Assembly (NCBI GenBank): GCA_047404195.1
Contig: JBDOIU010000005.1
Location: 75,643 to 139,642 of the forward strand
From: Coxiellaceae bacterium
GTDB lineage: Bacteria > Pseudomonadota > Gammaproteobacteria > JAJRRL01
Direction of reading: 5' to 3'
DNA: 64,000 nt
Below the pieces are notes generated by a model. The model was not told the DNA's origin. It did not search any database and saw only the letters and a list, made by a program, of their open reading frames with translations. How positions within the stretch are numbered: position 1 is the first letter of the stretch; the number at the start of each line of letters is the position of its first letter. The position numbers were made by a program, and so were the translations under genes. Positions 31,703-34,721 of this stretch are shown here, in pieces.

Positions 31703-32131
31703 ATGTCAAAAAATCATTTAGGTTCAGGAGCCCCACAAAAGCCAACAGCACGAGTTGGTGATGACCGTCACGGTTGTGTGGCGGGTCACGTTTTAAACGA
31801 TCAGTTGGCTCAGCTTGCTAGTATCAACGGTATTGCTACCAATGGGCAATCAGCTCAAAAGCAACCTATGCGCGTTGGTGATGATCGTCACGGCTGTGTG
31901 GCGGGGCATGTCTTGAAAGATCAAATAGCACATTTAGCTAGCATGAATAGCGGAAATGGCAATGTTAAGGCTGTTGAAAAACAACCGATGCGTGTTGGTG
32001 ATGATCGCCATGGCTGTACTGCTGACCCTTGTGCGAGTAAAAGTCATCTTAATCTGTTGATGCAAGCATCTAGTGAGCATCAAAAGGCAATGACAGATCT
32101 TGAGCATGAAATCATGGCAAGTAAGCTTTAG
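31703..32131 (+). CDS. Putative multi-core RiPP-like precursor peptide (142 aa; 3x RVGDDRHGC)
   Basis: AGGAGG RBS at 31691-31696 before ATG 31703. Three copies of RVGDDRHGC at an exact 40-aa period, directly upstream of three modifying-type enzymes. The ORF is well supported; the precursor role is inferred. Confidence 0.75.
   Translation: MSKNHLGSGAPQKPTARVGDDRHGCVAGHVLNDQLAQLASINGIATNGQSAQKQPMRVGDDRHGCVAGHVLKDQIAHLASMNSGNGNVKAVEKQPMRVGDDRHGCTADPCASKSHLNLLMQASSEHQKAMTDLEHEIMASKL
31751..32017 (+). repeat. 120-bp (40-codon) intragenic tandem repeat, 2 full units plus a partial third
   Basis: Core codons start at 31751, 31871 and 31991. Within the 9-aa core all DNA differences are synonymous. 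Confidence 0.95.
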
Positions 32132-32148
32132 CCTTTAAAGAAGGAGAG

Positions 32149-33126
32149 ATGTCTATGTTACGTTTTAATGAATCATTATTAACGTTATTGAAACCACATA
32201 TTTTCAACTCTCCTGTCCATCATGTGTCTGCTTTTGAGCATGATGAAAGTTATCTAAAAGAATTCCTATCGATTTTGTTTGACCCATTAAAGGGCGCTGA
32301 GAATAACTTAGTTGAAGTATGGAATAGTGCAGAGCAGGTTAATTCTGCCGCTTGGACACATTCCATACCGACTGATGCAACTTTGTATAGGGATGTGCGC
32401 TCAATAAAGAAGTGTATGGATCTAAAGTGCTCTATTGTTTTCGATCAATATTTTAAATATTCAATGATGGCTAAGCAGCTGATTGCGTTAATTCATGAAA
32501 CGCTTAACTGCGGTGGTGGATGTAATGCTTATCTATCACAAAAGGGTGGTAAAGCTTTTCCGATACACAGGGACGGTCATCACGTACTTATTTTTGCGTT
32601 ATCAGGCCAGAAAAGATGGAAAGTTTATAATCACAAACAAAATGCATATTACGCACAAATGAAAGTGCCAGATGAAACCACTGATGATGAGATACGTGCT
32701 TCTGGTTTGGCATTAGATATAATAATGAATCCTGGTGATATTCTTTATATTCCAATTGGGCAATTCCATGAGGTTGAGAATTTGTCAAATCATTCGCTAC
32801 ATTTGACAGCATCCATGGTTTACAAAAATCTGCCAATACTGATGAGTGAGATCTTGGCATCTATGTCATCAATAAAAGAAAAAAATGCAAGCCCCGAGCT
32901 GCTTTCGTTACTGAGCCAACTGCATCCTGCACAGTGCTCTAATACAGCAATATCCAAGGATTCATTGATTGACTCCCTAAAGGATGTCGTTAAGCTAATG
33001 GAGCTGGTTGTAAGGCACGATTCCTTCCCTGAAATGCATTTGGCGCGAGTCAGGAACAGGTATCTTGATATCCTGAAGCAACCGTCAGATGATTGGTTGC
33101 AAGAGGTGGGTTCGATTGAAGGTTAG
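32149..33126 (+). CDS. JmjC/cupin-like 2-oxoglutarate Fe(II) oxygenase (Cupin_4 / YcfD-NO66-like)
   Basis: NAYLS...AFPIHRD (HxD), LSGQKRWKVY, and PGDILYIPIGQFHEV (distal His). AAGGAG RBS at 32141; the true start may be ATG 32155. Confidence 0.9.
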   Translation: MSMLRFNESLLTLLKPHIFNSPVHHVSAFEHDESYLKEFLSILFDPLKGAENNLVEVWNSAEQVNSAAWTHSIPTDATLYRDVRSIKKCMDLKCSIVFDQYFKYSMMAKQLIALIHETLNCGGGCNAYLSQKGGKAFPIHRDGHHVLIFALSGQKRWKVYNHKQNAYYAQMKVPDETTDDEIRASGLALDIIMNPGDILYIPIGQFHEVENLSNHSLHLTASMVYKNLPILMSEILASMSSIKEKNASPELLSLLSQLHPAQCSNTAISKDSLIDSLKDVVKLMELVVRHDSFPEMHLARVRNRYLDILKQPSDDWLQEVGSIEG

Positions 33127-33934
33127 CCCTGCTCGTTTGGCGTCTCTCTCCCATTTATCACCCAAGCATTTATCCGCAATGTGTGATATCACGCAAATTT
33201 CACAGCTGTGTTGCTCACTATGTGGTTACTGCTTAACCTCAATTTATATTCGTGGTTCGACGGTATATGGAACTGCGCTCTCGCACTCAGATCTAGATGT
33301 TGTTGTTTTGTGTCAAGACATACCAATGACTCGTGCCGCTAAATTAAAACGTTATATTAAATATTTATGTGGATTCACGATCAGGTCTTTTGATCTGGGT
33401 ATCAAGGTTTTTTCTGTTGATTCTGATCGTAGAATCATTCCGCCAACTGATTCTGTAGGCTATGATTATATGATTGCTGAGAAATGCGTCAACTTTGACA
33501 TTTACATGAATGGAGTCTGTTACTACGGACAGGCGATACCTAGAGCAGATGATGTATTTGAATCAACTGAAGAGCTTTTGTATTCAAATCGTATTGTATG
33601 GGGCGCTGAGCTGTGTGATATTCTCAAAAAGGCTCAAGCATCACCAGTCTTTTTATGTCAGTTGGCTGGTTATATTGCTAAAAAAATTTTTAGGTGGTAT
33701 GCCTACAATGAAATTGCTACAGATCATATATATCGCACAACTATCATAGACTGCTATCAATATACGTTGCAGTGTTTTCCAGGGTCCTCAGCTCACATTA
33801 ATATGTTATATGCATTATACACACAGGAAATGAACGTATCTTCTGTAGGGGCTCAAGCTGTTTGGGATGCAATTGAAGCGTTATGTCAAAATATTCAATT
33901 ACCACTGCCTAGATTGGATGATTGCCATGATTAA
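33116..33934 (+). CDS. Pol-beta-superfamily nucleotidyltransferase domain protein (paralog 1)
   Basis: SIYIRGSTVYGTALSHSDLDVVV (hGS...DhD). Probable TTG start 33116 with GAGGTG RBS, overlapping the JmjC stop (ORF track start 33089). Confidence 0.8.
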   Translation: MKVSPARLASLSHLSPKHLSAMCDITQISQLCCSLCGYCLTSIYIRGSTVYGTALSHSDLDVVVLCQDIPMTRAAKLKRYIKYLCGFTIRSFDLGIKVFSVDSDRRIIPPTDSVGYDYMIAEKCVNFDIYMNGVCYYGQAIPRADDVFESTEELLYSNRIVWGAELCDILKKAQASPVFLCQLAGYIAKKIFRWYAYNEIATDHIYRTTIIDCYQYTLQCFPGSSAHINMLYALYTQEMNVSSVGAQAVWDAIEALCQNIQLPLPRLDDCHD

Positions 33935-34721
33935 TCAAGTGGGAACAATACAACCGCTTGATGAGAGTGGTCACATTCTTAACTTGACCAGTCATACAAG
34001 TCTACAGCGCTGCTGGCGGCAACTCTTGGAGACAGTACTCAAAAGCCTCGTAGAGTCGACATCCAATATACATTCAATTTATGTACGTGGGTCGGTTGCT
34101 GTTGGTCGTGCCATCAAGGACGTATCAGATCTTGATCTCATTGTTGTGGCCTTTAATGACTATGAGAAAAATCAAGCCGCATGCGAAGTAATCAAAAACA
34201 ATCACAGTCATTCGGATAGTTTTTGCAAAAAAATAGATATTTCACTTTGTACAGACGAGATGTTATTGTCCCCGTCTGATACCAGTCGCTTCTTCATTAA
34301 GACGCAGTCACTTCATATTTATGGGCGTGATATTTCACATGCGATCCCGAGCTTTGGCATAGACACGAATTTGATATCACACTGCTGGATGAATGATAAG
34401 GGTGTATTAGAGATGCTTATCAAGCATCTCTCTAGCAATGATGTTGAGATCAATATACAAGAGTGGTGTGTTTGGTTAATGAAAATGATAGTTCGCAATG
34501 CTTTTTTGACTGTAATGACGAAAGCGCAATGTTATACGCGTGATCTTTGGCCGTGTTATGATATATTCAGCCACTATCATCTAAATGAAATATCAGATTC
34601 TATTTATGCTGCGCTAAAACTGGCTGTTGAGCCTAGCAAAAATTCAGATGAGGTTATTGGTGTGGCACGCAGAGCCATGGATCATGTTTATGGTGTGGCT
34701 CTGGCAACGGCATTTTCTTGA
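33927..34721 (+). CDS. Pol-beta-superfamily nucleotidyltransferase domain protein (paralog 2)
   Basis: SIYVRGSVAVGRAIKDVSDLDLIVV, with a likely third Asp in KIDISL and C-terminal W.MK..VR...YTRDLWPCY. ATG 33927 overlaps the upstream stop (ATGATTAA). Confidence 0.87.
   Translation: MINQVGTIQPLDESGHILNLTSHTSLQRCWRQLLETVLKSLVESTSNIHSIYVRGSVAVGRAIKDVSDLDLIVVAFNDYEKNQAACEVIKNNHSHSDSFCKKIDISLCTDEMLLSPSDTSRFFIKTQSLHIYGRDISHAIPSFGIDTNLISHCWMNDKGVLEMLIKHLSSNDVEINIQEWCVWLMKMIVRNAFLTVMTKAQCYTRDLWPCYDIFSHYHLNEISDSIYAALKLAVEPSKNSDEVIGVARRAMDHVYGVALATAFS

Follow-up and report, generated by a model that had tools for sequence, protein, structure and literature searches.

A JmjC oxygenase and nucleotidyltransferases linked to a multi-core repeat peptide: a candidate RiPP-like cassette in Coxiellaceae and related bacteria

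What is the role of a small repeat protein whose gene is followed, almost without spacing, by genes for an oxygenase and two nucleotidyltransferases? This question is raised by a locus of a Coxiellaceae bacterium (assembly GCA_047404195.1, contig JBDOIU010000005.1) that lies within a stretch of 64,000 nucleotides, hereafter called the window. Four coupled genes on the same strand, at window positions 31703-34721, encode a repeat protein, a JmjC_2 oxygenase and two nucleotidyltransferases (NTases), NT1 and NT2 (Table 1). A preliminary description of this locus had claimed four co-oriented, coupled genes with a 17-bp gap and overlaps, the first of them encoding a 142-aa protein with repeated cores, and the open reading frames (ORFs) and their coordinates bear this out, with three copies of the core RVGDDRHGC. 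The best reading of the locus, which we consider fairly probable, is that of a cassette resembling those for peptides synthesized on ribosomes and then modified post-translationally (RiPPs), in which the JmjC enzyme would hydroxylate the cores and NT1, with or without NT2, would nucleotidylate the new hydroxyl. This reading is based on the conserved gene linkage, on the selection acting on the cores, on translational coupling and on natural gene fusions, and sequence comparison indicates that the small gene, hereafter the precursor gene, encodes a multi-core substrate.

A repeat peptide encoded next to a JmjC oxygenase and a nucleotidyltransferase

Scanning genome and metagenome collections with an alignment of the JmjC orthologues yielded eight distinct loci with an orthologous JmjC gene: the window, L003, L004 (identical to L006), L005 and L007-L010. 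Locus L003 belongs to a Coxiellaceae metagenome-assembled genome (MAG), L004 to a gammaproteobacterial MAG and L005 to a Legionellales MAG. The preliminary description had named homologous JmjC-NTase loci devoid of a repeat peptide as a refutation of its own reading. Its reading passed this test, since a small repeat ORF is present on the same strand directly upstream of the JmjC gene in all seven loci with upstream DNA; the contig of L009 begins inside the JmjC gene and gives no information on this point. Downstream, NT1 follows the JmjC gene in 6/6 loci that have DNA on this side (the window, L003, L004, L005, L007 and L009). NT2 stands next to NT1 in three of the five informative loci, namely the window, L003 and L005, on the opposite strand in the last, and neither L004 nor L009 has it beside the cassette; the entire genome to which L004 belongs (G041), when searched by profile, gave none either. 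NT2 is an optional, dispensable member, and the enzyme set proposed earlier, a JmjC enzyme with two NTases, holds for the JmjC-NT1 pair and has to be narrowed with respect to NT2. Co-location extends to the wider family: as judged by contigs of equal size, an NT1-family protein lies on the contig of 12 of the 15 JmjC orthologues, and the remaining three orthologues are on short contigs of 2632, 1322 and 1499 bp. In the related loci, the surroundings of the cassette contain no further biosynthetic gene that is conserved.

The three cores of the window precursor are spaced 40 aa apart, and their repetition exceeds chance. Pairwise comparison of these cores gives 11 synonymous and 0 non-synonymous codon changes, and identical repeat units of six precursors likewise differ synonymously only (11, 9, 7, 18, 4 and 7 pairwise changes), a zero non-synonymous count that is built in because the repeat units were defined by identical residues. 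The informative contrast for selection on the cores is therefore that between the cores of the window and its diverged linkers, in which 12-19 of the 20 codons after the cores differ non-synonymously. In a near-identical strain (run X2) there are three base differences, every one in linker codons. The possibility that the small ORF is spurious was rejected on account of the synonymous-only change in the cores. A single-sequence search with the precursor found only itself and no close relative, and a profile search of the precursor family returned six precursors, among which P0035, with two copies of RAGDDRVCHSTTSFF, was new. The match of the precursor to the Pfam SNAP-25 family (18.6 bits against a cut-off of 25, over 20 residues) was taken as chance.

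The repeat units differ between loci. The precursors of L005 and L010 each have four repeats (units GGDDRVCHERPFVK and GGDDRVCQGRPVYS, respectively), those of L008 and L003 have two (RGGDDRVCQ, and RPFEKGGSDGYDKLDLPQ with a GGSDGY-type core), that of L007, which is cut by the contig end, has at least three (DQLRAGSDKGSSKDYLK), and that of L004 has one core, a single KGSNDS site. The eight precursors, of 63 to 142 aa, share the core [R/K]-x-G-[D/S]-[D/N]-[R/K/G] in 1 to 4 copies each, and core position +2 is Asp in seven of them and Asn in the eighth. Thus, of the RVGDDRHGC residues to which the preliminary description had drawn attention, the Gly, the Asp/Ser and the Asp/Asn are conserved and the Cys, His and Arg are not. 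The cores of three of the eight precursors lack Cys, and Arg and His are not universal. A cross-link to the Cys, proposed earlier, can therefore not be the general mechanism, and we rejected it as such. Five of the eight core types are devoid of Ser, Thr and Tyr.

The N-termini of the precursors are short (9-16 residues). The C-terminal 35-45 residues, on the other hand, are conserved in pattern, with a hydrophobic patch followed by an amphipathic E.[E/Q]I..[A/S]K tail in which one Glu is invariant in 8/8 precursors. Recognition would accordingly depend on a follower at the C-terminus and not on a leader, and we propose that the follower region is a docking element or, possibly, an export signal.

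The genes of the cassette are also coupled at the level of translation. Comparable GGAG-like or Shine-Dalgarno-like sites precede the precursor genes of all the other loci, and in the window a spacer of 17 nt separates the precursor stop from the JmjC start. The most likely start of NT1 is the TTG at 33116, which gives an overlap of 11 nt with the JmjC stop and is preceded, at a distance of 7 nt, by GAGGTG; NT1 could instead start at an in-frame ATG at 33089. An overlap of 11-35 nt between the JmjC stop and NT1 is present in 6/6 loci with downstream DNA, with a TTG start in five of the six, and the NT2 ATG (33927) overlaps the end of NT1 by 8 nt, within ATGATTAA. At this JmjC/NT1 junction (window 33116-33126; L003 6952-6964; L005 7939-7951; L007 1379-1391; L009 465-477), the final four JmjC codons (usually C-S-E/K/Q-stop) are at the same time, in another frame, the first codons of NT1 (M-F-R/Q/T-I/V from TTG), and this dual-coding stretch of 11-13 nt is retained among the orthologues.

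Table 1. Coordinates of the cassette and of the elements beside it in the window
Feature	Position	Strand	Basis or remark
Shine-Dalgarno AGGAGGG of precursor gene	31691..31697	+	sequence; 6 nt before ATG
Precursor gene	31703..32131	+	ORF, 142 aa: short N-terminus, three cores, C-terminal follower
Core 1, RVGDDRHGC, residues 17-25	31751..31777	+	
Core 2, RVGDDRHGC, residues 57-65	31871..31897	+	
Core 3, RVGDDRHGC, residues 97-105	31991..32017	+	
Follower, residues 106-142, ending LEHEIMASKL	32018..32128	+	the family's conserved tail (alignments)
JmjC_2 (ROX-type) Fe(II)/2-oxoglutarate oxygenase	32149..33126	+	325 aa; PF08007, E 5.3e-19
NT1, Pol-beta-superfamily nucleotidyltransferase, C-terminal half helical	33116..33934	+	ORF, family matches
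NT2, distant NT1 paralogue, accessory cassette member	33927..34721	+	ORF, homology to NT1
tRNA-Ser	29720-29809		precedes tRNA-Arg
tRNA-Arg (ACG)	29821..29897	+	ARAGORN, Rfam
178-bp unit, 2.1 copies, directly after tRNA-Arg	29881..30250	+	Tandem Repeats Finder, 94% matches

Between the precursor and JmjC genes, a strong hairpin is predicted in four of six loci (z -3.6 to -6.1; 0/200 shuffles as stable); that of L005 is weak, and there is none in the 17-nt spacer of the window. A hairpin also follows mccA, the precursor gene of microcin C. With respect to transcription, one 231-nt metatranscriptome contig (run X4) spans 31974-32194, that is, the 3' end of the precursor gene, the spacer and the start of the JmjC gene, which is a weak hint that this region is transcribed. 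This contig has an extra AT in the spacer (32141-32142) and one other mismatch, and it therefore stems from a close but non-identical strain; runs X2, X3 and X4 contain only small parts of the 64,000-nt stretch. Promoter and terminator scans gave results at chance level, and an Rfam search over 29000-36500 gave two tRNAs and nothing else.

The enzymes and the chemistry that they may perform

The JmjC protein passes the PF08007 model with 68.4 bits against a gathering cut-off of 22. Its iron triad (H138, D140 and H205) and the 2-oxoglutarate-binding K153, described earlier as intact, are invariant in 15/15 JmjC orthologues and align to the corresponding motifs of NO66; an HxT motif is present as well (H216-L-T, with H216 invariant in the orthologue alignment), and the alignment to NO66 extends to profile position 288. 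When the JmjC profile was compared with solved structures, the matches were NO66 (8e-17), MINA53 (8e-11), YxbC (2e-5), YcfD (5e-5) and FIH (2e-4), so that the nearest solved relatives are protein-residue hydroxylases or putative ones. The best of these, NO66/RIOX1, MINA53/RIOX2 and YcfD/RoxA, have the HxD...H triad, the 2-oxoglutarate Lys, the HxT and part of the C-terminal helical extension in common with the window enzyme. However, their target is a single His or Arg in a ribosomal protein, and they possess an additional domain at the C-terminus, whereas the window enzyme is shorter (325 aa) and, unlike them, is tied to a repeat peptide and to an NTase. That additional domain of NO66-like proteins, PF21233, is recorded for P0017-P0019, P0026 and P0029 and for none of the 15 JmjC orthologues (P0002-P0016).

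The orthologous JmjC group is sharply bounded: it has 14 further proteins with 38-88% identity (E <= 1.5e-63), and the next match is at 2e-11. The JmjC tree is star-like, with a cluster of L003, L004 and P0005 (support 89/91), and because of this shape and this grouping the co-variation of the JmjC enzyme with core type is weak. A first pattern scan with the JmjC protein of the window had given no match. Two lone JmjC genes were set aside: one in G014, with 26% identity and no NTase nearby, and a gene for 248 aa in L012, which lies among ribonucleotide reductase and 3-deoxy-D-manno-octulosonic acid (KDO) genes and looks phage-like and unrelated. The JmjC matches in L013 and L014 are weak (30% identity over about 94 aa).

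NT1 and NT2 (about 265 aa each, with a helical C-terminal half) are both marginal matches to PF01909 NTP_transf_2, at 21.7 and 21.4 bits against a cut-off of 21. The claim that they are paralogues holds, as their homology extends from end to end of the two proteins (hhalign probability 96%, E 2e-9, 205 columns). The NT1 motifs RGS and SD.D (R55, G56, S57, D68 and D70) are invariant in 19/19 sequences, as are G55, D68 and D70 in 26/26 NT2-like proteins, and K198 and Y215 of NT1 are invariant too. The column expected to hold the third carboxylate, which was placed by the known fold, is Gly in the window NT1 and varies between D, G, E and H across orthologues; D137 of NT1, in an FD motif, is nearly invariant and may substitute as third carboxylate. 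NT2 retains D or E at this column. Both proteins resemble Pol-beta NTases of the two-domain type (ANT(3'')(9), KNTase) and enzymes that AMPylate proteins (GlnE, DrrA, MntA) in the hG[GS]...DxD core, in a size of about 260 aa and in a helical C-terminal half, which has an invariant Lys and Arg; only the N-terminal motif region aligns, however. Matches to NCBIfam are all below threshold (12-19 bits against family cut-offs of 60-560, for MntA and aminoglycoside NTases), and neither protein reaches the cut-offs of the ANT(3''), ANT(9) or ANT(4') families, which are 340-560. The weak relatives that can be named, ANT(3''), ANT(9), KNTase, MntA and DrrA, act on hydroxyl acceptors.

The MntA matches raise the question of whether the cassette, with nucleotidyltransferases of the MNT type as its basis, could act in a toxin-antitoxin or anti-phage role, which we regard as most improbable. 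NT1 does match MntA_antitoxin weakly (E 9e-4, 19.1 bits against a cut-off of 60), PADLOC gives weak matches for the NT1-NT2 fusion P0050, including PDC-S09 and oligonucleotide cyclase models, and a location on an island with a patchy distribution (see below) would suit such a module. But there is no adjacent HEPN gene in any locus, the sole HepT-like match (E 0.041) being three ORFs away in one locus, PADLOC yields nothing below E 0.008 for the four proteins of the window, and NT1 and NT2, with their length and helical C-terminal half, contrast with the NCBIfam MntA model of 106 positions.

Natural fusions tie the enzymes to one another: P0050 and P0054 link NT1 to NT2, and P0094 links a JmjC_2 domain to an NT2-like NTase. 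In a further protein, P0056, an APH-type kinase is fused with the C-terminal part of NT1, and its contig has the same size as that of the JmjC protein P0016. The NT1 family is rare: a search of 1.84 billion representative proteins gave 94 matches at E<1e-3, of which 20 had E<1e-30. NT2 is part of a wider family, with 25-31% identity to many representatives. A cluster search with the homologue P0039 returned only generic NTP_transf_2 clusters. One NT2-like protein, P0083 (489 aa), is fused to a class I S-adenosylmethionine (SAM) methyltransferase domain (PF08241, 3.7e-14). On plasmid pCN101 of Pantoea stewartii (L033, 1-12663), an NT2-like NTase is found inside an operon of nonribosomal peptide synthetase (NRPS) type with genes for an amino-acid adenylation protein, a major facilitator superfamily transporter, an AMP-binding protein, a hydrolase, an NAD+ synthase and a LysE translocator.

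The substrate of the enzymes could also be something other than a peptide, such as a small molecule or an RNA (for example a tRNA base), in which case the small ORF would be a regulator or an unrelated conserved neighbour. The relatives of NT2 lend some weight to this idea: NT2-like proteins stand alone on plasmids of Bacillus, Vibrio and Streptomyces, one belongs to the NRPS-type operon of pCN101, and the weak family matches of the NTases are to aminoglycoside NTases and CCA enzymes. Among JmjC enzymes, TYW5 acts on tRNA. Nevertheless, we consider this quite improbable, given that the nearest solved JmjC relatives act on protein residues, that the repeat peptide is present in 7/7 loci with its cores under selection, and that no further biosynthetic gene is conserved around the cassette.

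We therefore return to the reading of the precursor as the substrate, for which the following sequence of steps can be envisaged. The follower would dock the peptide on the enzymes, and the ROX-type JmjC enzyme, using Fe(II), 2-oxoglutarate and O2, would hydroxylate a side chain of the core. As the Asp/Asn at core position +2 provides the sole side chain that every precursor retains, its beta-carbon would be the likeliest site. NT1, translationally coupled to the JmjC enzyme and probably forming a heterodimer with NT2 where the latter is present, would then transfer a nucleoside monophosphate from a nucleoside triphosphate onto the new hydroxyl. This order is proposed because the NTase relatives use hydroxyl acceptors and five of the eight core types contain no Ser, Thr or Tyr, so that a hydroxyl would first have to be made. 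The kinase-fused NT1 variant would add a phosphate instead, and this fusion suggests that the purpose of the step is a phosphoester on the hydroxyl. The phosphoester may be an end product, so that a peptidyl nucleotide results, or it may act as the leaving group in a subsequent elimination or substitution. The cassette itself would provide for neither processing nor export, the product either staying a modified small protein or being handled by host functions.

Several points weigh against this proposal. Firstly, we infer the chemistry, hydroxylation followed by nucleotidylation, throughout from sequence. The ROX enzymes with solved structures act on Arg or His of ribosomal proteins, and to our knowledge hydroxylation of Asp/Asn is a property of FIH-type JmjC enzymes only; the choice of Asp/Asn as the target is thus unsupported by the closest relatives, which act on Arg/His. 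Secondly, both NTases are only marginally at the Pfam cut-off, their matches to solved NTases are confined to the N-terminal ~50-85 residues (E 0.02-0.6), and NT1 may be weak or non-catalytic in some members because its third-carboxylate column varies. Thirdly, no peptidase, exporter, immunity gene or RiPP recognition element (RRE) is conserved in any locus, and core release, a defining step of RiPP biosynthesis, is therefore without genetic support. The preliminary description had already noted that the operon of the window has no peptidase, transporter or RRE gene, in agreement with the Pfam and NCBIfam matches of its ORFs; neither a peptidase nor an exporter is linked to the cassette in the window, L003, L004, L005 or L009, and the flanking genes differ at every locus. 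Finally, the hairpins behind the precursor genes are just as compatible with separate transcription of the small gene, the RNA-library contig of run X4 may be DNA carry-over, and co-location judged by contigs of equal size is indirect.

The island, its hosts and the effector alternative

The cassette is patchily distributed. The JmjC family was found in 1/3, 1/21, 1/63 (with one more genome unscored) and 1/86 genomes of four orders, which gives a single carrier species per order, and neither it nor the cassette was found in the congener G001. In the window, the stretch with the cassette, situated immediately behind the tRNA-Arg gene and the repeats of its 3' end, has a G+C content of 39-41%, against 44-46% beside it. 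Horizontal spread is part of the RiPP-like reading that we consider fairly probable, and the tRNA-Arg gene is the probable insertion point of an island bearing the cassette. In G001 a permease gene follows this tRNA gene. The exact borders of the island could not be drawn because its two flanks are on different contigs in both G001 and G002. Each copy of the 178-bp repeat that follows the tRNA gene begins with the tRNA-Arg 3' end, giving two extra copies of that end, and the repeats look like stacked att-type remnants of successive insertions.

Three ORFs that flank the cassette within the low-GC stretch (30341-31075, 31079-31498 and 34793-35584, all on the minus strand) have no family match, and their translations look hydrophobic by eye; they were not counted as parts of the cassette because they have no relatives in the other loci. 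Farther away, the window encodes an ankyrin-repeat protein (2983-4503), two proteins of 1917 and 857 aa with MavL-like ADP-ribosylhydrolase domains (48573-54326 and 55898-58471, both on the minus strand; E 7e-8 and 1.5e-10) and large proteins without family match (23-2254, 6616-9648 and 46601-48358), and the region looks effector-rich. Beside the cassette of L004 there is a gene for a DOT1-like histone methyltransferase homologue (8812-9432, minus strand; E 3.7e-17), and beside that of L005 one for a eukaryote-type Ser/Thr/Tyr kinase with Sel1/TPR repeats (9627-11333, minus strand; E 8e-52).

This setting brings in another explanation, namely that JmjC, NT1 and NT2 are effectors translocated by the Dot/Icm system that hydroxylate and AMPylate host proteins, with the repeat protein co-delivered as a decoy, a metaeffector or a repeat effector with its secretion signal in the conserved tail. 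The hosts do bear Dot/Icm, as DotA_TraY scored above the cut-off in all four carrier genomes checked (G000, G041, G042 and G043; the window genome has 1.7 Mb), and this, together with the effector-type, eukaryote-like neighbours in L004 and L005, is equally in keeping with an effector role. The ankyrin protein and the two MavL-like proteins of the window point in the same direction, as do the better score of the JmjC profile against eukaryotic NO66 than against bacterial YcfD and the weak, motif-level matches of the NTases to DrrA. The precursor tails are Glu-rich with hydrophobic ends, a property that resembles Dot/Icm signals. Such signals are, on the other hand, not usually conserved in sequence, whereas the precursor tail is. 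Moreover, overlapping starts and stops that are kept at ~40% identity, together with domain fusions, argue for one pathway acting on one substrate, and strict purifying selection on short, copy-variable cores is more readily expected of a substrate or product than of a partner protein. Related JmjC_2 genes are, furthermore, found in ordinary RiPP contexts. Taking both sides together, we judge an effector module to be unlikely.

Relation to known systems and possible significance

How would a RiPP-like cassette of this kind compare with known systems? Cyanobactin and microviridin precursors also have several core copies, in varying number. They have N-terminal leaders, cleavage sites flanking the cores and dedicated proteases, however, in contrast to the apparent C-terminal follower and the lack of a linked protease in the window system. 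Microcin C is a ribosomal peptide that carries a nucleotide and has an Asp-derived warhead. It differs in that the ThiF/E1-like enzyme MccB nucleotidylates a C-terminal carboxamide, in its single-core precursor and in its exporter and immunity genes; no MccB-type ThiF/E1 domain was found among the proteins of the cassette or their neighbours. In the pathway of the lasso-peptide pseudomycoidin, a kinase phosphorylates a hydroxyl and an NTase-fold enzyme adds to it, and NTase fusions were used there as evidence as well. In this case the acceptor is the native C-terminal Ser, the NTase transfers a hexose, lasso enzymes are present and there is no oxygenase.

JmjC hydroxylases in RiPP pathways are already published. 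CzlI (curacozole) and BipG (biphenomycin) are Fe(II)/2-oxoglutarate JmjC enzymes that hydroxylate a residue of RiPP precursors in dependence on flanking sequence; by description, the enzyme of the window is of the same kind. YxbC, reported as the top structural homologue of CzlI, is also among the profile matches of the window JmjC. Both pathways have single-core precursors with leaders, azole-forming, MNIO or radical SAM enzymes, a peptidase and a transporter; they have no nucleotidyltransferase, and their targets are Phe and Orn.

A class-wide search with the fusion P0094 matched its JmjC part only, in 36/400 genomes, and contexts were inspected for the best 2 of the 36 matches, L048 and L049; the NTase is absent from both. 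In L048 (G295:C49, 5465-10649), from another gammaproteobacterium with a 1.7-Mb genome, a 57-aa ORF is accompanied by a radical SAM/SPASM maturase-like gene and an overlapping JmjC_2 gene, a leucine-rich repeat protein and an ATP-binding cassette exporter, in what resembles a compact RiPP cluster. In L049 (G445:C78, 1518-5246), the gene of a RiPP precursor with an NHLP leader (TIGR03793, 86 bits) precedes that of a kinase-like P-loop protein of 445 aa (AAA_33/zeta-toxin-like), with a divergent gene for a 409-aa JmjC_2 protein ~780 bp away and a methyltransferase nearby. To judge from its genes, L049 is another pairing of an oxygenase and a phosphotransfer-type enzyme beside a peptide. A survey of RREs also notes bacterial PF08007 homologues in RiPP-like contexts.

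The enzyme set was taken in the preliminary description to be undescribed as a RiPP class, and our literature search agrees with this: we found no description of a RiPP with a JmjC enzyme and a nucleotidyltransferase, and nothing that links Legionellales, JmjC and effector. It should be noted that the word nucleotidyltransferase is absent from the main text of Iyer et al. 2010, and that the bacterial MINA/NO66-like neighbourhoods of its supplement may bear on novelty.

The furthest-reaching possibility is a new post-translational chemistry, or a new RiPP class, in which each core would receive a beta-hydroxy-Asp/Asn and then a nucleotide (or phosphate) ester made by Pol-beta NTases. The products, formed by intracellular bacteria with a Dot/Icm system, would be multi-copy peptidyl nucleotides or small nucleotidylated proteins, possibly delivered to a eukaryotic host or to competitors, by analogy with the aspartyl-adenylate warhead of microcin C. 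We put this forward tentatively, as a conceivable though doubtful extension. The idea is directly testable because the substrate is unusually well defined: the proteins have only 63 to 142 aa, and their conserved core is short. If it is true, a nucleotidyltransferase step would be added to the chemistry of ribosomal peptides, on a hydroxyl installed by a JmjC enzyme, and ROX-type JmjC oxygenases, known from ribosomal proteins, would gain a dedicated peptide substrate. It would also provide a rare case of machinery resembling that for peptide natural products in small-genome, host-associated relatives of Legionella.

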